From positions 105,104 to 169,103 of the forward strand of contig JBILMD010000002.1 in the NCBI GenBank assembly GCA_044375675.1: 64,000 nucleotides of DNA. The letters run 5' to 3'. The stretch comes from Alphaproteobacteria bacterium. GTDB taxonomy: Bacteria > Pseudomonadota > Alphaproteobacteria > JAJTHO01 > CANGYM01. This document shows positions 11,722 through 61,374 of the stretch, piece after piece (the stretch's first letter is position 1; each line of letters starts with the position of its first letter). The notes under the pieces were generated by a model, which saw nothing but the letters and a program-made list of their open reading frames with translations, had not been told where the DNA came from and made no database searches. The translations under genes were made by a program, and so were the position numbers.

Positions 11722-12036
11722 ATGATCATCACAAACCTTGAATATGTGCCTAACCGAGACATCATTGAACATTATGGCTTAGTGAACGGCAGTTCTGTGC
11801 GTTCAAAGCACGTTGGGCGAGATTTGATTGCAGATTTTAAAAATATGTTTGGCGGTGAACTTAGGGGTTATACAGAGTTGTTGGAAGAAACACGCCAAGA
11901 AGCCTTAGAGCGTATGAGAAAACAGGCTGAAAATGTAGGTGCGAATGCCATTTTAAATGTGCGTCTTTCAACATCGTCTGTGGCATCCGGTGCAGCGGAA
12001 ATTTATGTATATGGGACAGCGGTAAGGATTGCATAG
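11722..12036 (+). CDS. YbjQ/UPF0145 (DUF74) family protein, soluble paralogue
   Basis: 104-aa protein with the YbjQ-family pattern (GLV...R...IADFKNMFGGE..YTELLEETRQEALERMRKQAENVGANAILNVRL). First gene of a low-GC island. Confidence 0.75.
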   Translation: MIITNLEYVPNRDIIEHYGLVNGSSVRSKHVGRDLIADFKNMFGGELRGYTELLEETRQEALERMRKQAENVGANAILNVRLSTSSVASGAAEIYVYGTAVRIA

Positions 12037-12499
12037 TATGGTCGATATAATGCTTGAGCATCTCGATTGGGTCGTTGGGGGCGCTTTACTGATTTTTACC
12101 GCTTTTTCTGGGAAAATCCTTGAAAATAAGCATTTCAAGGATTTGCTGGAAAGAGAAGCTGTTGCCCCAAAAATTCCCCTTGTGAATACGAAAGAAAAAA
12201 ACCTTTCCTTTGCATCTAATACACGCGCCGAGTTGGTGATTGGTAGCGTGGTGTTATCCTCTGATTTTTTCCGCTCTACTCTTGCCAGTTTCGTGGATAT
12301 TTTTGGAGGTCGTGTAGGAGTGTTAGAGAATTTAATGGATAGAGGCCGCCGAGAAGCCCTTCTTCGTGTACAAGAAAAAGCACGGGGCGCATCCCACCTC
12401 TTAAACGTGCGTTATACAACGGCAACATTAACTGATCCGAATAGAGGAGGTGTTCCTAAGGTTGAGGTTGTTGTTTATGCAACAGCCGTATACCCCTAA
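12029..12499 (+). CDS. YbjQ/UPF0145-like domain protein with N-terminal transmembrane anchor
   Basis: N-terminal hydrophobic helix (WVVGGALLIFTAF) followed by a second YbjQ-like domain (FVDIFGGRVGVLENL...EALLRVQEKARGASHLLNVRY). Overlaps the upstream gene by 8 nt, suggesting translational coupling. Confidence 0.6.
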   Translation: MHSMVDIMLEHLDWVVGGALLIFTAFSGKILENKHFKDLLEREAVAPKIPLVNTKEKNLSFASNTRAELVIGSVVLSSDFFRSTLASFVDIFGGRVGVLENLMDRGRREALLRVQEKARGASHLLNVRYTTATLTDPNRGGVPKVEVVVYATAVYP

Positions 12500-12517
12500 A
12501 GTACTCCTCTTGAAGCC

Positions 12518-13294
12518 ATGAAGTTTAAACATAAAACGTTTGATCATCAGGTTAATCATAGCACTGAACGTGAATGGGTAATTTTTGTCAGGGGGGGGCT
12601 GGGGTTAATCATTCTTGTGGTTATCACGTTAATCACCATCACATTGATTGTCCATCTTGGTGTGCAACATTTACCTAACTCAGTTGAAAGCTTTATATGG
12701 CGCCATTTGCAAACAATGGATTTTCAGGAATCTCCTATCGCAACCGAATCGTATCCGGTTGTACAGCGTGTTTTCGCTTCTTTGCCTAAACCAGATATAC
12801 CGCCTTATCTCACGCTAAAAGTTGCAGTGATGAAGGAAATAGACAGCAATGCCTTTGCTTATCCTAATGGTACCATTGTGATTTTTGAGGGATTGCTAAA
12901 GACAATAAAAAGTGAAAATGCTCTTGCTTTTGTGCTCGCCCATGAAGTGGGGCATTATGCACATCGGGATCATTTTAAGACGATGCTTGAATTGGGCCTT
13001 TATAGCATTTTAAGCTCTATAGTCGACGGTATGATGACTATCCCCAGCACGGCAGTGCAGGCACGTTTCTCCCAAAATACAGAAACTGCAGCCGATCTGT
13101 ACGCACTTGACGTGCTTTATAAGCGGTATGGTCATGTGGGCGGTGCAACCGAATTTTTTTCGACCATTCACCATAACGATTTCGAGGGGCTTGCGCTGTT
13201 TGCATCACATCCTTTAAGCAAAAAACGGATCGAAGTCTTGCGTGCGCGTATCAAAGAGAAACAGTTCCCTGAAAAGGCGACGATTCTCTTATAG
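12518..13294 (+). CDS. M48-family zinc metallopeptidase (membrane)
   Basis: HEVGH zinc-binding motif (VLAHEVGHYAHRDH) and N-terminal TM segment. Low GC. Contains a G8 homopolymer at 12591-12598. Confidence 0.75.
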   Translation: MKFKHKTFDHQVNHSTEREWVIFVRGGLGLIILVVITLITITLIVHLGVQHLPNSVESFIWRHLQTMDFQESPIATESYPVVQRVFASLPKPDIPPYLTLKVAVMKEIDSNAFAYPNGTIVIFEGLLKTIKSENALAFVLAHEVGHYAHRDHFKTMLELGLYSILSSIVDGMMTIPSTAVQARFSQNTETAADLYALDVLYKRYGHVGGATEFFSTIHHNDFEGLALFASHPLSKKRIEVLRARIKEKQFPEKATILL

Positions 13295-13320
13295 GGTGTA
13301 TGTCTTCTCCACAGGGAATC

Positions 13321-20345: not shown

Positions 20346-20420
20346 GGGCGTATAGCTCAGGGGTAGAGCGCTACGTTGACATCGTAGAGGTCCGTGGTTC
20401 GAGACCACGTACGCCCACCA
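20346..20420 (+). tRNA. tRNA-Val (anticodon GAC), CCA encoded
   Basis: Cloverleaf with acceptor GGGCGTA/TACGCCC, anticodon stem-loop CTACG-TTGACAT-CGTAG, T-arm GGTTCGAGACC and 3' CCA. Confidence 0.9.
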
Positions 20421-24247: not shown

Positions 24248-24400
24248 GTGTTCTCGGCCTTAGTCACGAAAATAAAGCAGGACTTGCGCACACCCTTTGT
24301 CATTGCGAGCGCAGCGAAGCAATCCAGACATGCCGCTACGGGAAAGACTGGATTGCCACGCCTCCTGCGGAGGCTCGCAATGACGATGTGCGTAAGTCCT
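24248..24400. repeat. Repeat module B fused to structured repeat family A (copy 1)
   Basis: 24248-24280 matches 17084-17117. 24281-24400 is ~97% identical to 47458-47560 and contains nested inverted repeats (gacttgcgcac/gtgcgtaagtc, tcattgcgagc/gctcgcaatga, gcaatccag/ctggattgc, gcctcc/ggaggc). Confidence 0.65.
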
Positions 24401-33395: not shown

Positions 33396-33801
<406 letters not shown>

Positions 33802-46861: not shown

Positions 46862-47371
46862 CTAAAACGGGATTTCGTCATCAAGCTCTTTTTCCAAATG
46901 GACCGCAGGGGCGGAGGACCGCGTTTCGGGGCTGTCATAATACAAAGCCCCGTCACCCGGGCCGGCCAGAGAGGATCCCCCCTCGTACCCACTGCCGCCG
47001 CGGGCGCCGCCGCCGTCGGATTTGGTATCCAGCAGGGTCAGCTCGCCTTTAAAGCGGGAAATGACAATTTCTGTTGTGTATTTTTCAACGTTGCTTTGGT
47101 CGGTCCATTTGCGGGTTTGCAGTTGGCCCTCGATAAAAATGCGGCTGCCTTTTTTGACATAGCGCTCGGCGATATCCGCCAGTTTGTCGTTAAAAATCAC
47201 CACGCGGTGCCATTCGGTGCGGTCTTTGCGCTCCCCCGATTGTTTGTCGCGCCATGTTTCGGATGTGGCCAAGGTAAGCGTCGCCAATTTGGTCCCATCC
47301 TGGGAGGTGCGAATTTCAGGGTCTTTGCCCACGTTGCCAATCAGCATGACTTTGTTTAAACTTCCGGCCAT
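46862..47371 (-). CDS. ssb: Single-stranded DNA-binding protein
   Basis: OB-fold N-terminus (NKVMLIGNVGKDPEIR), Gly-rich linker and acidic C-terminal tip DDEIPF. Confidence 0.95.
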   Translation of the reverse strand: MAGSLNKVMLIGNVGKDPEIRTSQDGTKLATLTLATSETWRDKQSGERKDRTEWHRVVIFNDKLADIAERYVKKGSRIFIEGQLQTRKWTDQSNVEKYTTEIVISRFKGELTLLDTKSDGGGARGGSGYEGGSSLAGPGDGALYYDSPETRSSAPAVHLEKELDDEIPF

Positions 47372-47457: not shown

Positions 47458-47560
47458 GACTTGCGCACAACCTTTGTCATTGCGAGCGCAGCGAAGCAAT
47501 CCAGACATGCCGCCACGGGAAAGACTGGATTGCCACGCCTCCTGCGGAGGCTCGCAATGT
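47458..47560. repeat. Structured repeat family A (copy 2)
   Basis: ~97% identical to 24281-24400 over about 100 bp, with the same nested inverted repeats. Confidence 0.65.
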
Positions 47561-47579
47561 GCGTAAGTCTTAAAACCTT

Positions 47580-47846
47580 TTAAGCATCAGAGGCGAGAAT
47601 CTCTGACAGGATTTCAGGGGTTAGGCCGCGCTGGGCTGCTTTTTCGGCAAGGTCATGGCGCAAAGACAGGAAATTTTGGGATTTTAACGCCTGCCACTGG
47701 GCAAAATCTTGCATGGAAATGACGGCCACGCAATCGCGCTTGTGCCGCTTGATAATCACAGGCGCATGCTGGGCCCGATCCAAAAGAGCCCCAAAATGGT
47801 TTTGCGCGTCTCGAGAGGACATAATGTCAGTCATGATGAACATCAC
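47580..47846 (-). CDS. Phd/YefM-family type II antitoxin, orphan (no adjacent toxin ORF)
   Basis: NHFGALLDRAQHAPVIIKRHKRDCVAVISMQDF matches the Phd/YefM fold pattern. The start codon is ambiguous (GTG/ATG options). Confidence 0.65.
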   Translation of the reverse strand: MMFIMTDIMSSRDAQNHFGALLDRAQHAPVIIKRHKRDCVAVISMQDFAQWQALKSQNFLSLRHDLAEKAAQRGLTPEILSEILASDA

Positions 47847-48057
47847 AGTCTATGGGATGATTGGTTATAAGTGTAGCGATAATAGAGATTTTTGTCAAGA
47901 TTTTGATCCCAAAACATCACTTCCCCCCAAAAAAATTTTTTGGGTTTGGCGGGAAAATGTGATATTTGTTATAGTTGTGAAAAGTGAGATTTGTTATATT
48001 TTTTCTCTAAAATAACTTAAGAAGCCAAAGCATTCTAGAAAAGGTTTTTATACGTTT

Positions 48058-51000
48058 ATGGCGAATCATCCTATTTTTTCTGATGAAAAGAAAGATCTCT
48101 TTGTTTATTTGTTAGATAAACAAAGAGAAGTTGCCGGAGATGAGCAAGAGGATTTTCAGACAGCCTTGGCTATTTATCAGGGAACCTTTGAGGGCCAGAG
48201 AGAGGGTGCACACAATCCTGTTTTAAATCCTAAAGTGGCCAAATATTTACTAACGATTATTGAAATCGAAAGGATTGCGGGAGAGGTTTCCACCTTTCGT
48301 TATAAAGAGGATAATAGATCAGAGAGCGTGACACCTGTTGAGGGTACCCCTAGATTTTTGATAAAAAATATGAGGGATGCTGGTGTACCTTATAAGGAAG
48401 CTTTGGAAATTCTTGCGACCATTCAAGATCACCCTGTTTTAACAGCCCACCCGACCAATACCCTTGATTCACAACGGCTTATTGTTCATCAAAACTATAA
48501 AAACGACCTTGTAAGGCTGGACCCCCGCACAAATCCCGAGGCCATAGATAACATAGTCATAGGGTATTTAACATCTTTGAATGGACAGCGTTTGGTTGCA
48601 GATAATAAGAGTGTTGAAGAAGAGGTTCGAGATGCACTAACGCATGCTGGAAACCGTTGGGAAGGCATAGAATTTATTTATGGAGCCTTTGAAAAAGCTT
48701 TGAAGGAATATTATCCGGCAGAGTATCGTGACGGAGATCTTAAGCTCAATTTAAAGATCAGTTCTTGGGTCGGTGGCGATAAAGATGGCAATAAATCGAT
48801 TGATGAACAAACAACAAGGAAGACTATCCTTGCCCATGATGCTGAGGCTCGTCTTAAATTTACAGCAGCGATAGATCGTATCGCCGGAGATTTGACACTA
48901 AAGACATCCGGTGATGATCCTTTTCTGAAGCGTATCATGGATATTGTGCGTGATGATAAGCAGCCCGATGAGGGTCGGGATCTCAATCTTATGGATGTTG
49001 CGCCTATCCAAGAAGCTTTGGCATCTATGTTGGAAGATCTTTCCTATCAGTTTGCCAACAATTCCATCAGGCTTTTTCAACGTCAAATCGATTGTTTTGG
49101 GGGGACTGCAGGGAAACTGGAATATCGTGAAAATAGTGTACTATTAATGGAAGCCTTGGACGTTTTGCTGAAAGAATCCGTCCCTGGTTATGAAGCATAC
49201 GAAACTCCAGCAGACAAAGAAGAGCTTTATACCCAAATTTTGATGGGGGAACGTCCTGATATCAATTTAAATCATCACCTAAGAGTTCAGTTAAAAAAGC
49301 TGGAGGATAAAAAGGCTAGGGGAGAGAGTCTAGAAAAGAAGGAAAATGCCTTTGTGACGACCTTTGGTCGTTTTGAATTGGCCTTGTTGAATCCAGAAAT
49401 TATTGAAAATCATGTTATTGCTGAGGCCACAGACAATTTTCAAATCTTAGGGGTCGAAGTTATAAAAAAGGCAGTGTCCCAAAAATTAAACGATGAAGGA
49501 AAGACATCAACGCCACATTCTTTGCGGTTAACGCCCCTTTATGAAAGCCCAGAGGATATGGCCGCTATACCAGCAAGAATGGATGCACTTTTGGATAATC
49601 CTGCTTATCAGGATAGTTTAGAAGGGCAAAGAGTCCATTTTGGCTTTAAAAAGCTCTTTCAAGCGATTAAGGTGGCCATGAGCGATACCATGCGCCGTGG
49701 AAGCTTAGTGGGGGCTCGCATTGCTATACATCGGGCCATCAAGAAAACCCAAGAGGTCATGGTCAAATGCGGTGTCAGTCCACAGATCGATTTTGGGGGT
49801 AGTCAAACAGACCCGATGCGTGATGGCGGAAGAGCCATGGGATTCAAAGTCAAGTTGTACAAATTGTTATCGCATGGGTTAAAATATACATCGCAAGGAA
49901 TTGATCTGGTTCATTTTATGGGTGGTCCAGCAACAGGTCCTTTTTGCTTGGCCAATCTTGTGGCTTTGGGGCAGGGGCTTTTTAAAGACCGCTACACCCC
50001 AGAAAATCCCCCTTTGTCTCGTCTTAGCGATCAAGTTGACGATATTCTTTATGAGGCTTTGCCGGATATTGTTAAAAATTATGAAGACACCTTTTTTAAC
50101 GATCCCTTAACAAACGAGTTGCTTGAGGCACTTGATTATAATGGTATCACAACAGCTGGCAATTCATCGAGTCGTGCAAAAGGCCGCAGTGATAAGATTC
50201 GTATTCAAGATGTGCGCTCGATTAGCTTAACGGAAACTTTTCAACATAGTCAACTTGTTCCTGGGTACTTGGGATGTTCGGTGTTGAAAAGAAATATTTA
50301 TGAAAAAATAAACACTATTTTGGATGATTCAGCCAATCAGACAGAGTTGGCCAAATGCCTGCGTGTGATTGCATCCAATCATAATCATAGCAAAGATGAG
50401 GCGTTTTATAGCGCTGCTCTTAATTTTATGTTTAACCGTAGCCCTTTAATGAGGGATACTATGGATCGAGTTGGGCATTCTGTTGCTTGTACAAATTTTG
50501 AAACAGTTTGGAAAAGTCTTTTTAATGAACCTTTGCCTGCAGAGGAAAAGATTAATGCGCTAAAAGGGGAAAATTCGCTTCGGGGGCATCTGGTTCGGAT
50601 TATGCAGGACTATAGAGCAGGGGCTGCCGTATCCTATGCTGCTCAATCAGGCGAACCCCTTCAAGAAGTTTCCATTATAAGTACAGAAAAAAAGCTAGAA
50701 ACAATGTACCCTCATTTTCAAGGTTATTTTGTGGCAAATGATAATGTGTTTCCTTTTTTGGTTGAGGCACGAAAAACATTTGAAGAATTACGACAATCTG
50801 AAAATCAGGGCTCTTCACAGTCAAAGTTAACTGAAGAGAGGGTCGTTCATGCTATCGGTGATGGTTTGATTTTTTCGAACCCAGATGCAGCGAAATACCT
50901 ACTTTCTTGGGCTAATTTTTTAGCGGATCATCCGGAAATACAAGATCAAATCCAAAATAACGTCGGCAAAGCTAAAGAAATTTTAGTAGAGGCAGGTTTA

Positions 51001-51072
51001 ACAGACCATCAAAGCGGACATGAATGGTATAATACCATTTCAAAGTTTCTTAGAGTGGGGCGCACTGTTTAA
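48058..51072 (+). CDS. Divergent phosphoenolpyruvate carboxylase (PEPC)-like protein, 1004 aa, in a low-GC island
   Basis: PEPC N-terminal motifs sit at the expected spacing (VLTAHPT at ~aa 128; SWVGGDKDGN at ~aa 237). Later motifs are degenerate: GGSQTDPMRDGG where GYSDSxKDxG is expected, LVHFMGGPATGPF where FHGRGGxxGRGGxP is expected, and C-terminus RVGRTV rather than MRNTG. GC is about 36-40%, against a ~53% flank. Confidence 0.8.
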   Translation: MANHPIFSDEKKDLFVYLLDKQREVAGDEQEDFQTALAIYQGTFEGQREGAHNPVLNPKVAKYLLTIIEIERIAGEVSTFRYKEDNRSESVTPVEGTPRFLIKNMRDAGVPYKEALEILATIQDHPVLTAHPTNTLDSQRLIVHQNYKNDLVRLDPRTNPEAIDNIVIGYLTSLNGQRLVADNKSVEEEVRDALTHAGNRWEGIEFIYGAFEKALKEYYPAEYRDGDLKLNLKISSWVGGDKDGNKSIDEQTTRKTILAHDAEARLKFTAAIDRIAGDLTLKTSGDDPFLKRIMDIVRDDKQPDEGRDLNLMDVAPIQEALASMLEDLSYQFANNSIRLFQRQIDCFGGTAGKLEYRENSVLLMEALDVLLKESVPGYEAYETPADKEELYTQILMGERPDINLNHHLRVQLKKLEDKKARGESLEKKENAFVTTFGRFELALLNPEIIENHVIAEATDNFQILGVEVIKKAVSQKLNDEGKTSTPHSLRLTPLYESPEDMAAIPARMDALLDNPAYQDSLEGQRVHFGFKKLFQAIKVAMSDTMRRGSLVGARIAIHRAIKKTQEVMVKCGVSPQIDFGGSQTDPMRDGGRAMGFKVKLYKLLSHGLKYTSQGIDLVHFMGGPATGPFCLANLVALGQGLFKDRYTPENPPLSRLSDQVDDILYEALPDIVKNYEDTFFNDPLTNELLEALDYNGITTAGNSSSRAKGRSDKIRIQDVRSISLTETFQHSQLVPGYLGCSVLKRNIYEKINTILDDSANQTELAKCLRVIASNHNHSKDEAFYSAALNFMFNRSPLMRDTMDRVGHSVACTNFETVWKSLFNEPLPAEEKINALKGENSLRGHLVRIMQDYRAGAAVSYAAQSGEPLQEVSIISTEKKLETMYPHFQGYFVANDNVFPFLVEARKTFEELRQSENQGSSQSKLTEERVVHAIGDGLIFSNPDAAKYLLSWANFLADHPEIQDQIQNNVGKAKEILVEAGLTDHQSGHEWYNTISKFLRVGRTV

Positions 51073-51074
51073 CC

Positions 51075-53405
51075 CTACCTCCACAACCCCCGCAACCCCT
51101 CAAGAAGTTCCTTCTTATTCACCGGCGGAACTGGCTGTTGTTGTTCAGAGGGCGGCTGGGGGGTTAAACTCTTAACCCCCCGCACCTCAAACCGCCCATC
51201 CTTCAGCGGGATTAGGGCCTTGGCGCAGATGTCGTCGTTGGCGGGCAGAGGATTGGCGGGCAGTTTGCCTTTGTTTTGAATCAGGGACAACACGGTGTTT
51301 GTCAGGGTTTCCACCCCTTGCTTGCCCAAAGAGGCGCGGGGCGCATCCAAAGGTCCCGTAACCGATACCGGCACCGCCAAGGTCGCCAGCAGGGGGTCTT
51401 TGGGCGTGGGGGTTAAGGTCATGGCCACGGTGCTGGAGCCCAGAGTGATGGTGCCCGTTCCCCATACCTGCACGGCGGGGCTTTCCAGCAGCGTCACGGG
51501 GGTGGTGGCCACACCCTGAACAAAGGGCCACTTTGTGGCAATGCAAGAGAGGGGCAGCGTTTTTTGATCCCCCAGCAAAGCCCGCGCCAAATCACCGGAC
51601 ACAAAGGAGGAAAGCAGGGCTTCGCTTTGAACCGTGGCCGGCCCCATGCCCAAGGTGACATCCCCAGAAAGGGTGGCCAGCACCGTCTGAGGGGTGTGGC
51701 CGGTGCCCTGGACATTGGCCAAAAGGTGACTGCCCCCCCCCTGCATCGCAGAGGTCAGGCCGGTTGTTTTCAGCAAGGCCCCCACATTGGGATGGGTGAC
51801 ATTCAGCAGCATGGCCAAGGTTGCCTTGGGTGGGGTTGTGGGTTTGGGGCCCTGCGGCTGCGGCGTTAAAGAGGCCGAAAAGGTCATCCCCCCATCCTGA
51901 TAAAAACGCCCCCGACCCTCCATGGCCAAGGCGTCCTGTTGGGTGGCGCGTAGGGTGACTTGGGTCAACAGATCCCCTGCCTCTGCCGTTTCCCGAACAT
52001 GATCCAGACTGACCGTGATCACACCGCGCAGACCAGACCACGGGGTGGGATACAGGGTGATCTGCCGCCAAGAGGCGAGGGCAGGCTTGGGTGTTGGGGC
52101 GGGGGCGTCGTTTTGCGCGGCATTTTCAGACAACGCCGATGCCCCAGAGGGCGCAGCAGGGGCAGGGGCCGGTGTTTGCAGATCCGCCAACACCACCAGA
52201 GGGCTGCGTATATCCGCCTGCACCAACGTGGGGACGGCGGCCCCCTGTGGCCAGCGCAGGGTCCCGTCGCTTTCAACCGTCGTGGCGGTGCCCAGTGTGC
52301 CTTTCACTTTGCCCCACGTGATGACGTCACCTTTTTTCTGAAGGCGGCCTTTGACAGACAGGGGCTTTTGCAACAAAGGCACCTGAAATCGTGTGGCCAG
52401 ATCGGCAGATCCCGAAGACACCACCTGAATGGCCCCATCAAAGGATCCCTCTTTCAAACGGTACGTGCCGTTGCTGGTGACGGTGGCCCCCAGGCTGGTG
52501 ATCTCCCCTTGCGTCCATGTCACGGATTCCGGCGTATACAAAATCCCCATTTTCATGGTCATGGGCGGCAGATCCGGCGACGGAAACGCCTTGGGCCAAG
52601 CGGATGCGTTCAGGCTCAGGGTGCCCTCGGCTTTGCTGAGTGCCCCCAGATGTTTTGTGATGATGCCCGCGGCCGTAAATCCCACATCGGCCAGTGTGCC
52701 TTTCAGGGTGAGGGGGCTTTGTCCCGTGGGGGATAACAGGGCCAGACTGTCTTGAATCGTCCCCGAAAGACTCAGCGGGGTTTGGCGCAATCCCCCTGTC
52801 AGAGAGAAACGGTGCCCTTTGGTCTGGCCCTCTAGGGTCAGGTTGGCAATGTCCAGCGTTTCCTGTGTCGTTGTGTTGGTCCGTTGATCGGTGAAAAGAA
52901 TAACGCTGTCCCGAATGGACAGATTGCGGATCACCAGATGGGGGGCTGCGGGGGGTTTTGCAGAGGATGCGGGGGCTTGGGCATCGGTATTTGGGGTCTG
53001 TTGCGGGGCAGGGGGGGAGAGTGTCCAGTTGGTGTTGCCTTTGGGATCAATGGTCAGGCGCACAGTCATGCCGCCCACATCCAGCCCATCAACGACCACA
53101 TCCCCAAAAATTAAAGGAAGAAAGGCAATGTTCAGGTCGATTGTTTTGGCCTGCACCATCGGGCCGGTGGTGTCAAAGGGGGCATTGCTCAGGCTTATGC
53201 CATTCAGGCTCAGGCGTGGGGACAGTCCCCAATGAATGGCCATGTCGCCGTTTATGGTCAGGGTGCGTCCGGTGGCTTTTTGGACCTGCGCCACAATTTG
53301 ATCGCGCATATAGGGGGCTTTGATCACATCGTTTATGCTGTAAAGCCCGATGCCAAGCAGGACAACAATCCCGAGCAATGCCCATGCCAAAACCCGTAAA
53401 ACCAT
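51075..53405 (-). CDS. AsmA-family outer-membrane biogenesis protein
   Basis: N-terminal TM anchor followed by an AsmA N-domain (YMRDQIVAQVQKATGRTLTINGDM), a long Thr/Gly/Ala-rich beta-rich body and the AsmA C-terminus. Confidence 0.75.
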   Translation of the reverse strand: MVLRVLAWALLGIVVLLGIGLYSINDVIKAPYMRDQIVAQVQKATGRTLTINGDMAIHWGLSPRLSLNGISLSNAPFDTTGPMVQAKTIDLNIAFLPLIFGDVVVDGLDVGGMTVRLTIDPKGNTNWTLSPPAPQQTPNTDAQAPASSAKPPAAPHLVIRNLSIRDSVILFTDQRTNTTTQETLDIANLTLEGQTKGHRFSLTGGLRQTPLSLSGTIQDSLALLSPTGQSPLTLKGTLADVGFTAAGIITKHLGALSKAEGTLSLNASAWPKAFPSPDLPPMTMKMGILYTPESVTWTQGEITSLGATVTSNGTYRLKEGSFDGAIQVVSSGSADLATRFQVPLLQKPLSVKGRLQKKGDVITWGKVKGTLGTATTVESDGTLRWPQGAAVPTLVQADIRSPLVVLADLQTPAPAPAAPSGASALSENAAQNDAPAPTPKPALASWRQITLYPTPWSGLRGVITVSLDHVRETAEAGDLLTQVTLRATQQDALAMEGRGRFYQDGGMTFSASLTPQPQGPKPTTPPKATLAMLLNVTHPNVGALLKTTGLTSAMQGGGSHLLANVQGTGHTPQTVLATLSGDVTLGMGPATVQSEALLSSFVSGDLARALLGDQKTLPLSCIATKWPFVQGVATTPVTLLESPAVQVWGTGTITLGSSTVAMTLTPTPKDPLLATLAVPVSVTGPLDAPRASLGKQGVETLTNTVLSLIQNKGKLPANPLPANDDICAKALIPLKDGRFEVRGVKSLTPQPPSEQQQPVPPVNKKELLEGLRGLWR

Positions 53406-53478
53406 GGATAACCTCTTGCTGATGGATGAATTTCCGGTATAGTTGGGATCCAAGGACAAAAAGTCAAGGATATCCATA

Positions 53479-54495
53479 ATGACCATGAAACGCACATCCC
53501 TAGAAGGATATGATCCTAAAAAGGGATATGAGATGCTCATGGATTTTTGTCAAGGTCTGGAGCCTGTACGCACGGCGGTTTGCCATCCTTGCAGTGAAAC
53601 CTCTTTGCAGGGGGCGATCGAGGCAGCCGAGGTCGGCCTGATTATTCCCATCTTAATTGGTCCCAAAGCAAAAATTCAGCAGGTGGCCAAGGCGTGCGAT
53701 ATTGACCTGACCCCCTATGAAATCGTGGATACGTCCCACAGCCATGAATCGGCCAAAAAAACCGTTGAAATGGTACGCGCCGGCAAAGCCGATGCCATCA
53801 TGAAGGGCAGCCTGCACACCGACGAATTGATGGGCGAGGTTGTGAAAAAAGAAACCGGCCTGCGCACCGAACGCCGCATCAGTCACGTTTTTTTGATGTC
53901 TGTGGATGGGTATCACCGTCCCTTTATCGTGACCGACGCCGCCGTGAACATTTATCCAGACCTGATGACAAAGCGGGATATTTGTCAAAACGCCATTGAT
54001 TTTGCGCATATTATGCGGCATTATTATCATCCTAAGAGCCATCATACAAACCCTGTGAAGGTGGCCATTCTTTCCGCCATTGAAACCGTGAATCCCAGCA
54101 TTCAATCCACATTGGATGCTGCCGCCCTGTGCAAAATGGCGGATCGTGGACAAATCACGGGGGCTTTGTTGGATGGCCCTTTGGCCTATGACAACGCCAT
54201 GAATCTGGAGGCCGCCAAAACCAAAGGCATTCTCTCCCCCGTGGCCGGTGATGCCAGCATTTTGCTGGTGCCGGATCTTGAGGCCGGAAATATCTTGGCC
54301 AAGCAATTGATTTATCTTTCCGGCGCCTACGCCGTGGGCATGATCGTGGGGGCGCGGGTTCCGATTATTTTAACGTCCCGTGCGGATGGGGTGGAATCCC
54401 GCATTGGATCCTGCGCTGTGGCGGCCATGATAGCCCATTACCATAAGCACCATAGGGACAGCAGCAAAACGGTTTACGCCGCTGATCTGGCATGA
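53479..54495 (+). CDS. Phosphate acetyl/butyryltransferase (PTA_PTB family)
   Basis: PTA_PTB domain throughout (IVTDAAVNIYPD, SRADGVESRIGSCAVAA). The start codon is uncertain (MGSK / MTMK / MLMD). Confidence 0.78.
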   Translation: MTMKRTSLEGYDPKKGYEMLMDFCQGLEPVRTAVCHPCSETSLQGAIEAAEVGLIIPILIGPKAKIQQVAKACDIDLTPYEIVDTSHSHESAKKTVEMVRAGKADAIMKGSLHTDELMGEVVKKETGLRTERRISHVFLMSVDGYHRPFIVTDAAVNIYPDLMTKRDICQNAIDFAHIMRHYYHPKSHHTNPVKVAILSAIETVNPSIQSTLDAAALCKMADRGQITGALLDGPLAYDNAMNLEAAKTKGILSPVAGDASILLVPDLEAGNILAKQLIYLSGAYAVGMIVGARVPIILTSRADGVESRIGSCAVAAMIAHYHKHHRDSSKTVYAADLA

Positions 54496-57169: not shown

Positions 57170-57763
57170 ATGATCATCTCAGAGTCCGACTGTCCCTTTA
57201 CCCTGTTTCAAAACTGGTATCAACACGCCGAAGCGGCGGAAATCAACGATCCCAATGCGGCCAATCTCTGCACGGTGGATCATCAGGGGCGCCCCAGCAG
57301 TCGGATTATTCTGGTGAAACAGGTGGACAACGATGGTTTTGCCTTTTTCACCAATTACAACAGCGCCAAAGCCCAGAATCTGGTGGCTAGGCCCTTTGCC
57401 AGCCTATGTTTTCACTGGAAAAGCCTGCGTCTGCAGGTTCGGATCGAGGGGATGGTCAGGAAAACAGATGCCGCCGTATCCGATGCCTATTTTGCAACAC
57501 GGTCCAGAGAAAGCCAAATGGGGGCGCATGCGTCTTTGCAGTCGCAAGGTTTGCCGGATTGGGATGTTCTGAATCAACGTTTTGCCGAAGTTGTCCAAAC
57601 CTTTCAGGATAAAGATGTGCCCCGTCCACCCCACTGGGGGGGATTTTTGTTGATGCCAGAGAGGATGGAATTCTGGCAGGATCAACCCCACCGTCTTCAT
57701 CGTCGTTTGGTTTATGACAAATGTCGCAGCCCAACGTGGGAAACGCGTTTACTTTATCCCTAA
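57170..57763 (+). CDS. pdxH: Pyridoxamine 5'-phosphate oxidase
   Basis: FMN-binding split-barrel and the PdxH C-terminal motif (MEFWQDQPHRLHRRLVY). Start chosen at MIISESD. Confidence 0.85.
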   Translation: MIISESDCPFTLFQNWYQHAEAAEINDPNAANLCTVDHQGRPSSRIILVKQVDNDGFAFFTNYNSAKAQNLVARPFASLCFHWKSLRLQVRIEGMVRKTDAAVSDAYFATRSRESQMGAHASLQSQGLPDWDVLNQRFAEVVQTFQDKDVPRPPHWGGFLLMPERMEFWQDQPHRLHRRLVYDKCRSPTWETRLLYP

Positions 57764-57783
57764 AGAATCTTGTAGGTACATCC

Positions 57784-59283
57784 ATGCACACGTCAGACAC
57801 CATGAGGGATTTCTTGAAAAATCCCTCTCATTATGAAGGTGGGGGCACCGTTACCCTTCACGAAACCCATGGGGCTTGGGTGGGTGTGGGGGGAAACATC
57901 GCCATAAAGGTCAAAAAGCCGGTTCTGTTCCCGTACATGGATTACAGCACACCAGAAAAACGCCGTGATCTATGTTTTCGGGAAATGGCGCTGAATCAAC
58001 GCACGGCCCCCCATCTGTATCGGGAAATCCGGATGATTGCCCAGCACCCTGACGGGACGTTGTTTTTTACGACGGATCCCAGTAATGCCGTTGTGGATTA
58101 TGCCATTGTGATGAATCGTTTTGATGATCATCGTTTGTTGTCAGAACAGTCCTCTTTTTCTGAGGATGTGTGTGAACGTTTGGCTGCCCGCATTGCCGCG
58201 TTTCACAAAAACGAAGTGCCCCTTTCGGGCATTGATGGTTACGCCATGATGGTGGGGGTGGTTCAGGGGAATGATGGGTGTTTTTCTCCCTATCCCAACG
58301 CATTGCCCCAAAATCAAACACGCGCTTTGACAGCACACTGCCTAAAAGCCTTAGAGGAGCATAAGGGACTTTTGCAGGATCGTTCCGCCCGTTTTTTAAA
58401 GCAGTGTCACGGGGATTTGTATTTAAAAAACATCTATGTGGACACGGATGGCCAGCCTGTTTTGTTTGATTGTATCGAATTTAATGATGCCTTTGCCCAG
58501 ATTGATACGGCCTATGATTTGGCTTTTTTGCTGATGGATGTGAAATTTCGGGGGATGGCGCGGGAGGGATTTTGGATTCAGCATACCTATGTTCAGCAAA
58601 CAGGGGATATCGAGGGTTTGTTGCTGATGCCCGTGTTTATGGCCATACGGGCGGCCATTCGCTCTCATGTGTCTTTGGCTATCGCCCAAGGCATTACGGA
58701 TGCAGGGGCGAAAGATGGATTTTTGGGGGATGCCAAGGCCTATTTGGATCTAGCGCTGTCTTTGGTGGCCCAGAAAAAGGGATCGGTGACGGCCTTTGGG
58801 GGGTATGCGGGCAGTGGAAAAACAACACTGGCCCGAGCGTTTTCCCAAAAAACGGGGGCGGTTTTGGTATCCAGCGATGATGTGCGTAAACAGATGCATG
58901 GGGCGGCGGTGACGGAGACTCTGCCACAGACGGCCTATACCGATGAAAAAAACAGGGCTGTTTATAATCGTCTGCAGACCTTGGCCCTGGGGCTGGCGCA
59001 AACGGGCCAAGATGTTGTTTTGGATGCGACCTTTTTGCAGCAAGAGGGCAGGGAGGCTTTGGTAGACCAGCTAACAAAAGAAGGCATTGCTTTCCGCGGA
59101 TTCTGGGTGCAAGCCCCCGATGATTTGGCAGAGGCCAGAATGGATCAACGCGTAGGGGATGCATCGGATGCCACATCAGAGGTGCGTCGCCGGCAGAAAC
59201 AAAGCGATGTCGGTGCGATCACGTGGCCCCGTTTGTGGGGGCATACATCCACCGAGACTGTTTTGCAGGAGATTGCGGCATGA
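57784..59283 (+). CDS. Bifunctional aminoglycoside-phosphotransferase-like kinase / P-loop ATP-binding protein
   Basis: APH/ePK-like catalytic loop HGDLYLKNIY with a D-x-x-D-L-A metal-binding region, plus C-terminal Walker A GYAGSGKTTLA (gluconate-kinase/zeta-toxin-like fold). Confidence 0.7.
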   Translation: MHTSDTMRDFLKNPSHYEGGGTVTLHETHGAWVGVGGNIAIKVKKPVLFPYMDYSTPEKRRDLCFREMALNQRTAPHLYREIRMIAQHPDGTLFFTTDPSNAVVDYAIVMNRFDDHRLLSEQSSFSEDVCERLAARIAAFHKNEVPLSGIDGYAMMVGVVQGNDGCFSPYPNALPQNQTRALTAHCLKALEEHKGLLQDRSARFLKQCHGDLYLKNIYVDTDGQPVLFDCIEFNDAFAQIDTAYDLAFLLMDVKFRGMAREGFWIQHTYVQQTGDIEGLLLMPVFMAIRAAIRSHVSLAIAQGITDAGAKDGFLGDAKAYLDLALSLVAQKKGSVTAFGGYAGSGKTTLARAFSQKTGAVLVSSDDVRKQMHGAAVTETLPQTAYTDEKNRAVYNRLQTLALGLAQTGQDVVLDATFLQQEGREALVDQLTKEGIAFRGFWVQAPDDLAEARMDQRVGDASDATSEVRRRQKQSDVGAITWPRLWGHTSTETVLQEIAA

Positions 59284-60098
59284 CCGCCCGCGTGACTTTT
59301 TGGGGTGTGCGTGGATCCATTCCCTGTCCAGAGCCGGATTTTATGGGCTATGGGGGGCATACCTCGTGCGTCACTGTGGAGTTGGGGGAGGATTTGCTGA
59401 TTTTGGATGCCGGATCCGGTTTGCAAAAACTGGGACGCTCGGATTTGGTGAAGCGTCACAAAACCCTGCATCTTTTGTTATCGCACGCCCATTTGGACCA
59501 TATCATGGGGCTACCTTTTTTTGCCCCGCTTTATGATCCGGACTATACGGTGCATTTTTATGCCAGACCTGCCACGGGGGAAACGGTGGATGGGGTACTC
59601 AAAAAAATGCTGATGCCCCCGTTTTCCCCTGTGACCACAGAGACCTTTCGGGCCACGTTGCATTTTCATGCTTTTGAGGACGGGGAAAGCCTGAGAATCA
59701 GCAATCATACCATCGCAACCCATCCCCTAAACCACCCTGGGGGTAGCATGGGGTATCGTATGGCTTCAGATACAGGATCATTGTGTTACATCACCGACAC
59801 CGAACACACGGTTGGGAAAACCGATGAAGGTTTGGTGCGTTTTATCAAAAACAGTGATTGTTTGATTTATGACAGCATGTTTTGTGATACCAACTTTACC
59901 CCTTATATCGGATGGGGCCATTCGACCTGGCAAGAGGGAGTCCGCTTGCAAGAAAAAGCGGGCGTAAAAACGTTTTTCCTGTTTCATTATAGTCCCGATG
60001 CCGTGGATGGTGTCCTGAGGGATTTGGAGGTAGGTTTGGAAAAATCCTACGGATCACACGTTCGTCTTGCCAAAGAAGGCGTATGCGTTTATGTTTAA
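59280..60098 (+). CDS. MBL-fold metallo-hydrolase (PhnP/ElaC-like)
   Basis: HxHxDH motif (LLSHAHLDHIMG). ATG overlaps the upstream stop (ATGA). Confidence 0.75.
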   Translation: MTARVTFWGVRGSIPCPEPDFMGYGGHTSCVTVELGEDLLILDAGSGLQKLGRSDLVKRHKTLHLLLSHAHLDHIMGLPFFAPLYDPDYTVHFYARPATGETVDGVLKKMLMPPFSPVTTETFRATLHFHAFEDGESLRISNHTIATHPLNHPGGSMGYRMASDTGSLCYITDTEHTVGKTDEGLVRFIKNSDCLIYDSMFCDTNFTPYIGWGHSTWQEGVRLQEKAGVKTFFLFHYSPDAVDGVLRDLEVGLEKSYGSHVRLAKEGVCVYV

Positions 60099-60264
60099 AG
60101 GACAATTTTTTGATCCTTTTTCAAAGCATAAGCGCATCAGAGCCCCAAAATTCAACCATAGGTTGAATTTTGCTTTTGGAAATCAGGACATTATCCTGTT
60201 GCACTACCCTGTTTTTTGGGTAATATCTGCCAAGTTTTGACAGCTTTAAAAAAACAATCAAAAG

Positions 60265-61374
60265 TTGAAATTCATGAAAATCATGCATGCTATCGGCGGT
60301 GAGACTTTTGGAGGGGCGGAAAGTCACTTTGTTCGTCTGGTTTGCGCCCTTCATCACAGTGGTTTGGCGCAGCATGTTGTGATGCGTCATCATCCCCAGC
60401 GCATGGCTACGCTCAGGGCCGCAGGGGTAACGGTGACCGAGGCCCCGTTTCAGGGATTTTTGGATGCAAAAACCAGGGATATCTTGAAACAAGAAGCCAA
60501 GACTTTTGCCCCTGATATTGTCCAAAGTTGGATGTTTCAGGCCAGCCGTATGATGCCCGTGGGGGATTATATGCGTCTGGGGTGGTTACGGGGGTTTCAC
60601 CATTTGGAAGATTATCGGTATTGCGATCACTTGTGCGCTTTGACCAAAGGCATTGTGTCCTCGATTGTTGCCCAAGGATGGCCTTCGGAGCGGATCCATC
60701 AGGTCCGCCCGTTTGCGGAGGCCAAGTTGGGTAAAAAAATTCCCAAATCCACCTATAAAACCCCCGAAGATGCCCCCGTGATTTTGGGTCTGGGGCGTTT
60801 GCACTGGCATAAATCGTTTGACACGGTGATTCAGGTGCTTACCCAGATTCCGGAGGCCTATTTCTGGTTAGCCGGCGAGGGGGAGCAGAGAACAGATTTG
60901 GAAAATTTTGCAAAATCCATAGGGGTTTTTGATCGTGTGCGGTTTTTGGGATGGCACGAGGATCAGGCGGATCTTTATGCCACTGCGGATGTTTGCGTTT
61001 TGCCCTCACGCTACGAGCCCTTTGGGTTGGTGATGATCGAGGCATGGGCGCACAAAATCCCCTTGGTGGCGACGCGGGCGGCCGGACCCCGTGCCACGGC
61101 CCAGGATATGGTGGATGCGCTTTTGGTGCCCATTGATGATATTGATGCCTTTGGTGAGGCCATTCGCCGCATTCTAACCGATGATATTTTACGGGCGTCC
61201 CTAGTGGCTAACGGTTTTAACCACTACAAGCAGGATTATACGGTGGATTCTACGGTGGCCCAATATCATCGTCTTTATCAAGATATTTTGGATCAGGGAC
61301 CCATGATCCATCGTGGATTATCTCGTTTGGGGCAAATTAAAGATTCCCTTTTGGCGTTGTTTCTTTCAAAGTAG
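60265..61374 (+). CDS. Family 4 glycosyltransferase (GT-B fold)
   Basis: N-terminal GGAE(S/T) motif (GGETFGGAESH) and C-terminal E-x7-E region (RYEPFGLVMIEAWAHKIP). Confidence 0.75.
   Translation: MKFMKIMHAIGGETFGGAESHFVRLVCALHHSGLAQHVVMRHHPQRMATLRAAGVTVTEAPFQGFLDAKTRDILKQEAKTFAPDIVQSWMFQASRMMPVGDYMRLGWLRGFHHLEDYRYCDHLCALTKGIVSSIVAQGWPSERIHQVRPFAEAKLGKKIPKSTYKTPEDAPVILGLGRLHWHKSFDTVIQVLTQIPEAYFWLAGEGEQRTDLENFAKSIGVFDRVRFLGWHEDQADLYATADVCVLPSRYEPFGLVMIEAWAHKIPLVATRAAGPRATAQDMVDALLVPIDDIDAFGEAIRRILTDDILRASLVANGFNHYKQDYTVDSTVAQYHRLYQDILDQGPMIHRGLSRLGQIKDSLLALFLSK

Follow-up and report, generated by a model that had tools for sequence, protein, structure and literature searches.

Introduction

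The recognised types of phosphoenolpyruvate carboxylase (PEPC) are the bacterial, the plant (plant-type PEPC, PTPC, and bacterial-type PEPC, BTPC) and the archaeal one (PMC8100219). In PEPC, the metal ion is ligated by a glutamate and an aspartate, a conserved histidine on a mobile loop deprotonates carboxyphosphate, and a hydrophobic pocket houses CO2 (PMC10176493); His138, His579 and Arg587 matter for catalysis (PMC11832675), and in the Flaveria enzyme, Lys600 is one of the four residues of the HCO3- site, its substitution K600R raises the Km for both phosphoenolpyruvate (PEP) and HCO3-, and Arg450 and Arg767 are essential (PMC6363079). Here, we have analysed a stretch of 64,000 nucleotides (hereafter "the window") from Alphaproteobacteria bacterium (assembly GCA_044375675.1, contig JBILMD010000002.1, positions 105,104 to 169,103 of the forward strand), which contains a gene for a highly divergent PEPC-like protein, referred to as "type A", at a position where close strains carry other genes. 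A described counterpart of such a setting are the replacement flexible genomic islands of aquatic bacteria, which are exchanged by homologous recombination and carry dissimilar cargos of similar role (PMC10872708).

An initial annotation of the window, made from the letters alone, had described the type A gene as a horizontally acquired pseudoenzyme or repurposed enzyme with degenerate catalytic motifs. Our comparison of the type A protein with canonical PEPCs and with a large set of distant relatives indicates that its motifs are re-specified and not degenerate, because none of the metal, PEP-phosphate and His/Arg catalytic positions has been lost. We give an even chance to the reading that the product of the type A gene is a soluble, catalytically competent enzyme with the PEPC fold, which would form a third branch beside the bacterial/plant and the archaeal types, and which occurs here as swappable cargo.

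The type A protein and its fold

The type A gene is an intact reading frame, found at the place that had been claimed for it (Table 1), and its product of ~113 kDa (pI 5.4) is soluble, as judged from its physico-chemical properties. The protein matches the Pfam family PEPcase (PF00311) with E=1.5e-35 and 122.9 bits, the gathering score being 22.4, with the best stretch spanning only amino acids (aa) 65-283; PEPCs of the Protein Data Bank (PDB) are also matched at the sequence level. The full-length PEPC fold is predicted by the AlphaFold2 (AF2) model (predicted local distance difference test, pLDDT, 77; predicted template modelling score, pTM, 0.74), in which the last ~90 aa have low pLDDT, and the comparison of this model with the maize, Arabidopsis and Flaveria PEPCs by Foldseek gives E~1e-24 and template modelling (TM) scores of 0.66-0.72 over ~1000 columns, at 15-17% identity. 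The proposed homology to the PEPC fold is hence upheld by both the profile search and the structure prediction. The protein scores 102.5 bits on the NCBIfam equivalog of the bacterial/plant enzyme (NF000584), under the cutoff of 815, and has no match to the archaeal-type models PF14010 and TIGR02751.

The G+C content (GC) of the type A gene is 0.415, with 0.35 at third codon positions (GC3), and that of the remaining window is 0.528; no other 3-kb window is as low as that of the gene, which falls more than 4 standard deviations (sd) under the mean of 0.521 (sd 0.026), so that the low GC is local, as had been stated, and not genome-wide. The existence of the type A gene, of its PEPC fold and of the low-GC island is thereby confirmed. 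Hydropathy and N-terminal inspection revealed no signal peptide and no hydrophobic or transmembrane segment in the type A protein, on which grounds secretion by the Sec route was rejected; no secretion genes are located nearby either, and the secreted effector that had been envisaged finds no support here, although a non-Sec route is conceivable.

Correspondence of the active-site residues

In order to compare the active sites, the type A protein of the window (hereafter also "the query"), its relatives and canonical PEPCs have been aligned, with the numbering of E. coli Ppc taken from the alignment with PDB 1fiy. The residues that are retained in the query are His138 (His131 in the query), Trp248 (Trp237), Arg396 (Arg357), Leu504 (Leu494), Glu506 (Glu496), Asp543 (Asp543), Arg587 (Arg588), Arg699 (Arg706) and Arg713 (Arg720). 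Since all the metal, PEP and loop-Arg positions are kept, the protein should not be a decayed pseudoenzyme. Two N-terminal motifs that had been reported near aa 128 and aa 237, VLTAHPT and SWVGGDKDGN, are indeed found, at aa 127-133 and aa 236-245.

The residues that are changed in the query are Lys546 (to Arg), Asp547 (to Arg), His579 (to Phe), Met538 (to Lys) and Lys620 (to Phe). The GYSDSxKD block, in which Lys546 is located, reads AMSDTMRR in the query, with Asp543 kept, and the canonical Gly-rich loop FHGRGGxxGRGG, in which His579 and Arg581 are located, is not present: Gly580-Arg581 are deleted, three residues including Asp585 are inserted, and the loop reads F--GGSQTDPMRDGG. According to Kai et al., Trp248, Leu504 and Met538 form the hydrophobic CO2 pocket and Arg581 is a residue of the bicarbonate site. 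By motif position, Lys600, Arg450 and Arg767 of the Flaveria enzyme correspond to Lys546, Arg396 and Arg713 of E. coli, and the change of Lys546 to Arg may accordingly be read as tolerated, yet kinetically costly.

The C-terminal RNTG and the positions of the aspartate/malate site (Lys773, Arg832 and Asn881, the allosteric site according to Kai et al. 1999/2003) are neither kept in the query nor conserved in the family, and the C-terminus is unalignable. The absence of RNTG, which had been stated earlier, is confirmed in the E. coli-numbered alignment. Feedback by aspartate or malate is, as far as the residues tell, almost certainly absent.

Two of the earlier motif assignments were shifted by one block. 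The stretch GGSQTDPMRDGG (aa 580-591), which had been taken for the catalytic-lysine block, aligns instead with the Gly-rich loop FHGRGGSIGRGG, the query stretch aligned to this loop being FGGSQTDPMRDGG (aa 579-591); GYSDSxKDxG in fact corresponds to AMSDTMRRGS (aa 540-549), where Asp543 is kept and Lys546 is replaced by Arg. Similarly, LVHFMGGPATGPF (aa 617-629), which had been taken for the Gly-rich loop, follows TSQGID, i.e. the equivalent of TEQGE.

The wider family that shares the signature

An exhaustive profile search over 1.84 billion cluster representatives (50% level) has yielded more than 120 proteins that score 200-870 bits and are mostly 950-1250 aa long, with proteins of the usual PEPC length (~900-940 aa) first appearing near 180-190 bits; a word-indexed search returned just seven relatives. 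Among 128 family representatives of at least 850 aa, R396, L504, E506, D543, R587, R699 and R713 are kept in all 128, and H138 and W248 in 127, the remaining one having an alignment gap at each column. In the same set, Arg581 is missing in 118, Lys546 is replaced by Arg in 109, position 579 is not His in 113 (it is Glu or Gln in 107), and Met538 is replaced by Gln in 106. The query also has each of the 36 positions that are invariant in a 63-sequence alignment, the members of which are 20-25% identical to it.

In a neighbour-joining tree (distance-based, without support values), one clade of 124 proteins, i.e. 118 that bear the signature and 6 intermediates, includes the query and zero canonical PEPCs. 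The family is separated from canonical PEPC by 21 positions, nearly all of them in active-site motifs, with each state at least 85% conserved in its own group: DRDGN becomes DKDGN, DxRQ becomes ExRE, GYSDSxKD becomes AHSDNxRR, Gly580-Arg581 are deleted, and an Asp and an Arg are inserted in the loop. The query has all the elements of the signature (R253K, D394E, Q397E, G540A, K546R, D547R, the G580-R581 deletion and the inserted loop Asp and Arg), and deviates from the family state at M538 (Lys), Y541 (Met), S544 (Thr) and H579 (Phe). In the canonical group (n=46, K546/H579/R581 signature), G580, R581, D547 and Y541 are 100% conserved, and in 40 independent canonical matches, H579 is found in 40/40 and R581 in 36/40. 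Because each state is conserved to this extent within its own group, the family-wide pattern is, on the alignments, that of a re-specified site under selection and not of decay. Homologues with the same motif changes thus make up a monophyletic family, with more than 110 clusters at 50% identity that bear the signature.

The family also differs from canonical PEPC outside the active site: past E. coli residue 735, it has 2 conserved columns versus 13 in the canonical group, at a pairwise identity of 0.21 versus 0.39, and its median length is ~1078 aa, versus 927 aa for canonical PEPC. On the bacterial/plant equivalog (cutoff 815), its members reach 120-162 bits and a canonical control 1175 bits; on the archaeal-type one (cutoff 146), the members do not exceed 36 bits. 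Databases annotate family members automatically as "phosphoenolpyruvate carboxylase", and searches of the literature on PEPC-like or atypical PEPC families and on PEPC in Rickettsiales metagenome-assembled genomes (MAGs) turned up no description of the family. The earlier statement that no such family is described is therefore only half right: no publication on it was found and both curated PEPC equivalogs are failed, but the databases already contain a large, automatically annotated family.

The scanning of the GTDB species representatives with the family alignment has yielded 45 loci, all of them in MAGs, and the same scan with the single query yielded zero. According to the record titles, where the taxon labels are the submitters' MAG names, 27 are Rickettsiales bacterium, 10 Alphaproteobacteria bacterium, 5 Rhodospirillaceae or Azospirillum, and 3 Pseudomonadota. 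At 41 of the 45 loci, the GC of the gene is within +/-0.04 of that of its flanks (largest offset -0.068), in genomes of 41-67% GC, and the neighbours are housekeeping genes; because the GC tracks the flanks and the neighbours are of this kind, the gene appears to be a native, metabolic one in the usual hosts of the family. A conserved partner gene was sought across 48 loci and none was common to more than 6 of them, for which reason functional inference from operons was dropped. At 6 of ~45 loci, a gene for NADP-isocitrate dehydrogenase is located directly upstream on the same strand (e.g. L016:2092-3300; loci are designated by L numbers and relatives by P numbers), an adjacency that hints at a link to the tricarboxylic acid (TCA) cycle. 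No family member was found in the viral contigs scanned. A scan of metagenome contigs with exact query peptides also gave no match, though gene-bearing JGI contigs exist, and we read this result as a limit of sensitivity.

The nearest relatives of the query, P0003 and P0004, are 41% identical to it and come from transposase-rich genomes of ~42% GC. In these two relatives, and only there, the order M16 peptidase, PEPC-like gene, AcpS is conserved (L001:8286-13365, L008:8640-13346), with stop and start codons that overlap by 4 bp in L001. The PEPC-like gene of L008 is split into pieces of 765 aa and 205 aa, and an alpha-amylase gene of the same assembly is fragmented too.

The replaceable cassette and its slot

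In strains that have an RNase J protein identical to that of the window, different genes are located between the genes of SSB and of the AsmA-family protein, and the flanks are 97-99% identical. The cargos of this slot are type A (1001-1004 aa; the window, L003 and L061), a protein referred to as type B (L012 and L015) and a protein of 425 aa (L013 and L014); all three are acidic and have a GC of 0.40-0.45, and simple hydropathy and N-terminal inspection revealed no signal peptide or membrane segment in any of them. Homology between cargo types stops on the left right after the -10-like box, with divergence from position 47974, and resumes on the right at 51073-51076, where the stop codons of the cargo and of the AsmA gene are located. 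The -10-like box reads TATAAT in the strains with type B and the 425-aa protein. The first copy of a tandem 22-nt direct repeat is located in the shared flank and the second one within the cassette, being specific to type A; the repeat overlaps two promoter-like sites just 5' of the type A gene, and may be an operator. No integrase or tRNA adjoins the slot. The arrangement would be consistent with the swapping of cargos through recombination between homologous SSB and AsmA flanks.

The GC offset of the type A gene from its flanks is -0.11, beyond the largest one in the 45 other genomes. The type A gene is foreign to this lineage, and the horizontal acquisition that had been suggested is borne out by this offset, set against the 41/45 loci with offsets within +/-0.04, and by the strain-variable slot. 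As swappable cassette cargo that evolves much faster than its neighbours, the type A gene is an accessory trait at the strain level and not an essential anaplerotic enzyme.

An orphan antitoxin and a dispersed repeat, which the initial annotation had placed at the borders of the island, are both found nearby, the former being a PhdYeFM antitoxin without toxin partner and the latter having a second copy near 24.3 kb. Together, they form a separate, strain-variable insertion of ~450 bp that is absent from L003, L005, L012 and L015 and present in L014 and L061, and that varies independently of the cargo type (L014 carries another cargo). Their role as borders is ruled out by this independence, the true low-GC unit being ~47974-51072. 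No cognate toxin is located next to the antitoxin, and the expected toxin position is taken by the palindromic element, which has a DNA fold z=-6.2 and contains the motif TGTCATTGCGAGCGCAGCGAAGCAATCCAG.

Type B is a PEPcase protein of 867-882 aa (870-881 aa in L012 and L015), found in the same slot at L012:14587-17199, L015:13823-16468, L065:2828-5431 and L066:8001-10607. Its similarity to type A in BLAST is only local, with ~24% identity over ~160 residues; it keeps His138, Trp248, Arg396, Glu506, Asp543, Lys546, Arg587, Arg699 and Arg713, and in its loop, Thr replaces Arg581 and SSDP is inserted. The relatives of type B are limited to a graded series of 61-97% identity, the 61% and 74% members of which are located in the same slot; type B is a second isolated lineage of the PEPC family, known from this slot only. 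The 425-aa cargo (L013/L014:14770-16047; GC 0.40) is acidic and all-helical, with an AF2 model of pLDDT 44, and it is an orphan, with a series of relatives whose identity falls from 82% to 30%; Pfam, PADLOC and PHROG searches gave no match for it. PADLOC-DB 2.0 gave no significant match for type A, type B, the 425-aa cargo, P0003 or P0005, and PHROGs gave none for any cargo; with PADLOC, PHROGs and the viral contigs negative, an origin of the cargos from phages or known defence systems has no support.

Table 1. Positions of the cassette, its cargo gene, the active-site motifs and the neighbouring elements in the window.
Feature	Position	Strand	Remarks
Type A PEPC-like gene	48058..51072	+	ATG start, intact open reading frame, 1004 aa; cassette cargo
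TAHPT	48442..48456	+	aa 129-133; His131 = E. coli His138, catalytic base; invariant in family
SSWVGGDKDGN	48760..48792	+	aa 235-245; Trp237 = Trp248; DRDGN to DKDGN, family-discriminating
LEYRENS	49117..49137	+	aa 354-360; Arg357 = Arg396, PEP-phosphate ligand; DxRQ to ExRE
TPLYES	49531..49548	+	aa 492-497; Leu494 = Leu504; Glu496 = Glu506, metal ligand
KVAMSDTMRRGS	49669..49704	+	aa 538-549; true counterpart of MxGYSDSxKDxG; Asp543 metal ligand; Lys546 to Arg, Asp547 to Arg, Met538 to Lys
DFGGSQTDPMRDGGRA	49789..49836	+	aa 578-593; rebuilt Gly-rich catalytic loop; His579 to Phe, Gly580-Arg581 deleted, conserved Asp585 inserted, Arg588 = Arg587, extra Arg592
YTSQGIDL	49885..49908	+	aa 610-617; counterpart of TEQGE; T611, Q613 and D616 invariant in family
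GNSSSRAKGR ... DVRSISLTETFQHSQLVPGYLG	50158..50274	+	aa 701-739; Arg706 = Arg699 and Arg720 = Arg713, both PEP-phosphate ligands
Fast-evolving C-terminal third	50008..51069	+	aa 651-1004; allosteric-site residues not conserved
Codons 1-230	48058-48747	+	9 nonsynonymous, 0 synonymous (window versus L003)
Codons 231-650, catalytic motifs		+	31 nonsynonymous, 38 synonymous (window versus L003)
Codons 651-1005		+	112 nonsynonymous, 48 synonymous (window versus L003)
Replaceable low-GC cassette	47974..51072	+	~3.1 kb, GC 0.41; blastn of the slot, window versus L003, L012, L015 and L014
Promoter-like element TTGGCG-N18-TATAGT	47946..47975	+	in the flank common to all cargo types; consensus match, putative function
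Tandem 22-nt direct repeat AAATGTGATATTTGTTATAGTT / AAAAGTGAGATTTGTTATATTT	47955..48001	+	repeat search; region conserved in L003 and L005
SSB	46862..47371	-	conserved left flank of the slot
AsmA-family protein	51075..53540	-	conserved right flank; stop 2 nt from the cargo stop
Orphan PhdYeFM antitoxin	47580..47846	-	Pfam E=2.4e-10; outside the cassette
Dispersed palindromic element, ~115 nt, similar to miniature inverted-repeat transposable elements (MITE) or repetitive extragenic palindromes (REP)	47459..47570	.	second near-identical copy at ~24281-24400; outside the cassette

Evolutionary rates of the cargos

The comparison of type A in the window with its 88% allele in L003 gives a rate of nonsynonymous substitution (dN) of 0.068 and of synonymous substitution (dS) of 0.146, the dN of the neighbours being 0.000-0.020. 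The substitutions are not evenly distributed along the gene (Table 1): their pattern in the N-terminal part differs from that of the core (Fisher p=0.002), dS forms a mosaic, with 0 in codons 1-230 and 0.1-0.36 thereafter, and dN/dS is 0.1-0.4 in the core (codons 231-650) and 0.5-0.8 in the C-terminal third. The catalytic core of type A is, by these rates, under purifying selection. The ~85 nt 5' leader of the cassette and the adjacent promoter region are also conserved between the window and L003, and this conservation, together with the dS of 0, suggests that codons 1-230 and the leader are a recent recombination tract, followed by change at the amino-acid level only.

In the comparison of type B with diverged genomes, its dN is 0.16-0.26, that of EamA, GNAT, SSB and PTA is 0.013-0.026, and BolA (0.052) and AsmA (0.12) are intermediate; dN/dS is ~0.42 for type B versus 0.04-0.14 for EamA, GNAT, SSB and PTA, and the dS of type B is higher too. 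Where the flanks have diverged, the amino-acid change of the cargos is thus ~10x faster than that of the flanks. The reading frame is intact in all type A alleles (1001-1004 aa), and that of type B is intact down to 61% identity. The cargos are functional, as their reading frames are intact and their core is constrained, yet accessory and fast-evolving, with alleles that predate the flanks, because the dS of the cargos lies above that of the flanks. The AsmA gene itself is fast for a housekeeping gene, with a dN/dS of 0.36-0.39 and an identity to L065 of 81%, next to 95-97% for EamA, GNAT, SSB and PTA and 91% for BolA.

Possible functions of the type A protein

If the type A protein is a competent enzyme of the PEPC fold, as we tentatively propose, the metal and PEP would be bound through Glu496, Asp543, Arg357, Arg706, Arg720, Trp237 and Leu494, and phosphoryl transfer and enolate chemistry would proceed with His131 and the loop Arg588. 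The subsite of the second substrate (bicarbonate/carboxyphosphate) is rebuilt in a manner conserved across the family, through Lys546 to Arg, Asp547 to Arg, His579 to Phe or Glu, Gln397 to Glu, the deletion of Gly580-Arg581 and the loop Asp and Arg. Enolpyruvate would thus be generated from PEP without feedback control, by a protein whose cassette would be transcribed from the promoter in the shared flank. Carboxylation to oxaloacetate is the single likeliest outcome, with a chance that we place slightly below even: it is probably kept, because His138, which is described to act on carboxyphosphate, is invariant, and likewise Arg587, Trp248 and Leu504.

Several observations weigh against this proposal. 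G580, R581, D547 and Y541, which are 100% conserved in the canonical set, are lost in a coordinated manner, and this argues that the canonical carboxylation chemistry may be altered. Met538, which we presume to be a residue of the hydrophobic CO2 pocket, becomes Gln or Lys. The subclade of the query (the query and P0002-P0004) is a long branch with the extra changes Phe 579, Lys 538 and Phe 620. The high C-terminal dN/dS and the replacement of the gene by an unrelated 425-aa protein show that its function is dispensable, and it therefore fits an ordinary anaplerotic role poorly.

The chief alternative, which we hold to be unlikely but well short of negligible, is that the protein is neo-functionalised, i.e. 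that the half-site for PEP and the metal has been kept and the rebuilt second subsite takes something other than bicarbonate (water, a PEP analogue substituted at C3, or another anion or carboxylate), with no oxaloacetate being formed. It would account for the coordinated, family-wide changes (the G580-R581 deletion, H579 to E/Q/F, D547 to R, K546 to R, Q397 to E, M538 to Q, Y541 to H and the new loop Asp) at residues that canonical PEPCs, bacterial and plant alike, have without variation, one of which, Lys600/Lys546, belongs to the HCO3- site (PMC6363079), and it agrees with scores far under both PEPC equivalogs. The invariance in the family of His138, Arg587, Trp248 and Leu504, on which retained carboxylation is argued, counts on the opposite side, as do the conservative nature of K to R at 546, the recurrent isocitrate dehydrogenase neighbour, which fits a TCA-linked role, and the lack of a conserved partner gene that would point to a new pathway. 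A pseudoenzyme or regulatory decoy, which would have the PEPC fold without catalysis and act by binding a ligand or partner, is very improbable: R581, H579 and the allosteric site are lost, the PEPC equivalog score is very low and evolution is fast, but more than 120 distant relatives at 20-25% identity have the same metal, PEP-phosphate and catalytic His/Arg residues without variation, the changed positions are conserved within the family, the core (dN/dS 0.1-0.4) is under purifying selection, and the motifs reported as lost were partly mis-assigned, all of which contradicts the degeneracy that had been claimed. Least credible of all is a gene in decay, i.e. a recent passenger under relaxed selection and with no function in the host: the dN/dS of 0.5-0.8 in the C-terminal third, the dispensability in some strains and the split of the L008 relative (765 + 205 aa) would agree with it, but the 1001-1004-aa reading frames are intact despite a 12% amino-acid difference, the core dN/dS is 0.1-0.4, the promoter and 5' region are conserved, type B is intact down to 61% identity, and the L008 assembly fragments other genes too.

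The exchange of the gene between strains raises the further question of whether it serves in phage defence or inter-organism conflict, with the core as a metabolic effector (e.g. for unregulated consumption of PEP) and the C-terminal third as a sensor or interaction surface, and our answer is that this is rather improbable. Single genes, all of low GC, are exchanged among near-identical strains, at a dN ~10x that of the flanks, with a dN/dS of 0.4-0.56 and the elevated dS of old alleles; the core is conserved and the C-terminus very variable, the N-terminal 230 codons carry nine nonsynonymous and no synonymous changes, and freshwater replacement flexible islands are generally tied to phage pressure (PMC10872708). 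Conversely, PADLOC and PHROGs are negative and the family was not found in viral contigs, there are no partner, immunity or regulator genes, the wider family looks housekeeping-native in its usual hosts, and the promoter looks constitutive, which would be intolerable for an uncontrolled toxic activity. The related scenario in which the two PEPC-like lineages and the orphan are kept in one slot by frequency-dependent selection, with a core that has a new or PEP-consuming activity and a C-terminal third that senses a phage or competitor, seems to us to have a similarly small chance.

Other features of the window

Among the genes of the window are those of AroA/AroB, DapA, homoserine dehydrogenase, GlpX, norspermidine synthesis, a sulfatase with its maturase, and FlhB/FlgE/FlgD, and by this gene content, the host is evidently a metabolically capable, flagellated alphaproteobacterium that is not obligately intracellular. 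The host-associated or predatory lifestyle that had been considered finds no echo here, as amino-acid biosynthesis, gluconeogenesis, sulfatase and flagella are gene content of the free-living type.

A cluster at 57721-61374, located 7 kb downstream of the slot, encodes a Zeta-toxin/AAA_33 kinase-like protein, a metallo-beta-lactamase (MBL)-fold protein, for which related contigs record a Pfam match to Anti-Pycsar Apyc1, and a GT4 glycosyltransferase with a "GT4-conflict" match; it may be a conflict-related module. A second GC dip (0.425) occurs at 12001-13300, over the reading frame of an M48-family peptidase (12518-13294). The class A RNase P RNA (33398-33800) and tRNA-Val(GAC) (20346-20420) do not adjoin the variable slot.

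Significance and comparison with known systems

PEPC is a textbook enzyme, the active-site motifs of which are regarded as unchanging between bacteria and plants and of which only two classes are recognised. The family described here would be a third, sizeable and deeply separated branch, in which the PEP/metal machinery is kept, the bicarbonate/carboxyphosphate subsite is rewritten and allosteric control is dropped, and every member of which comes, so far, from an uncultured alphaproteobacterium. If the family carboxylates, it reveals which of the "essential" residues PEPC can do without, and provides a PEPC that is by nature insensitive to feedback; otherwise, a new PEP-dependent reaction is hidden under a wrong annotation, and the anaplerotic node is wrong in the reconstructions of environmental Rickettsiales-like MAGs. 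Were the conflict scenario true, the protein would represent a new class of metabolite-targeting defence or effector proteins and a third, non-carboxylating PEPC branch. The slot of this freshwater population is, furthermore, an unusually clean and tractable single-gene replacement island with a promoter, where two unrelated-looking genes of the PEPC fold and an orphan are swapped.

With the bacterial/plant PEPC (Ppc, EC 4.1.1.31, PF00311, NF000584; E. coli 1FIY/1JQN, maize 1JQO), type A shares the full-length fold and the same PEP, metal, His and Arg residues; it differs from it in the overall identity of 15-24%, in the equivalog score of 102 bits versus 815, in the rebuilt loop of the family, in the change of GYSDSxKD to A(H/M)SD(N/T)xRR, and in the unconstrained C-terminal region. 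The archaeal-type PEPC (PepcA, PF14010, TIGR02751) is likewise highly divergent and lacks the allosteric-inhibitor residues of the bacterial/plant type (PMC8100219); type A, at ~113 kDa versus 55-60 kDa (PMC8100219), is set apart from it by model scores and size. The plant BTPC, a subunit of class-2 PEPC complexes, is grouped with the conventional bacterial/plant PEPC in published descriptions (PMC8100219, PMC11832675); the present family is a clade of its own.

As for the slot, it resembles the replacement-type flexible islands in that dissimilar cargos are located at the same position in close strains, between conserved flanks and with sharp boundaries, in the absence of an integrase or tRNA. 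Unlike these islands, it is a single-gene cassette of 1.3-3.1 kb with a shared promoter and not a multi-gene glycan cluster, and two of its three cargos are proteins of the PEPC fold and not surface-modification genes.

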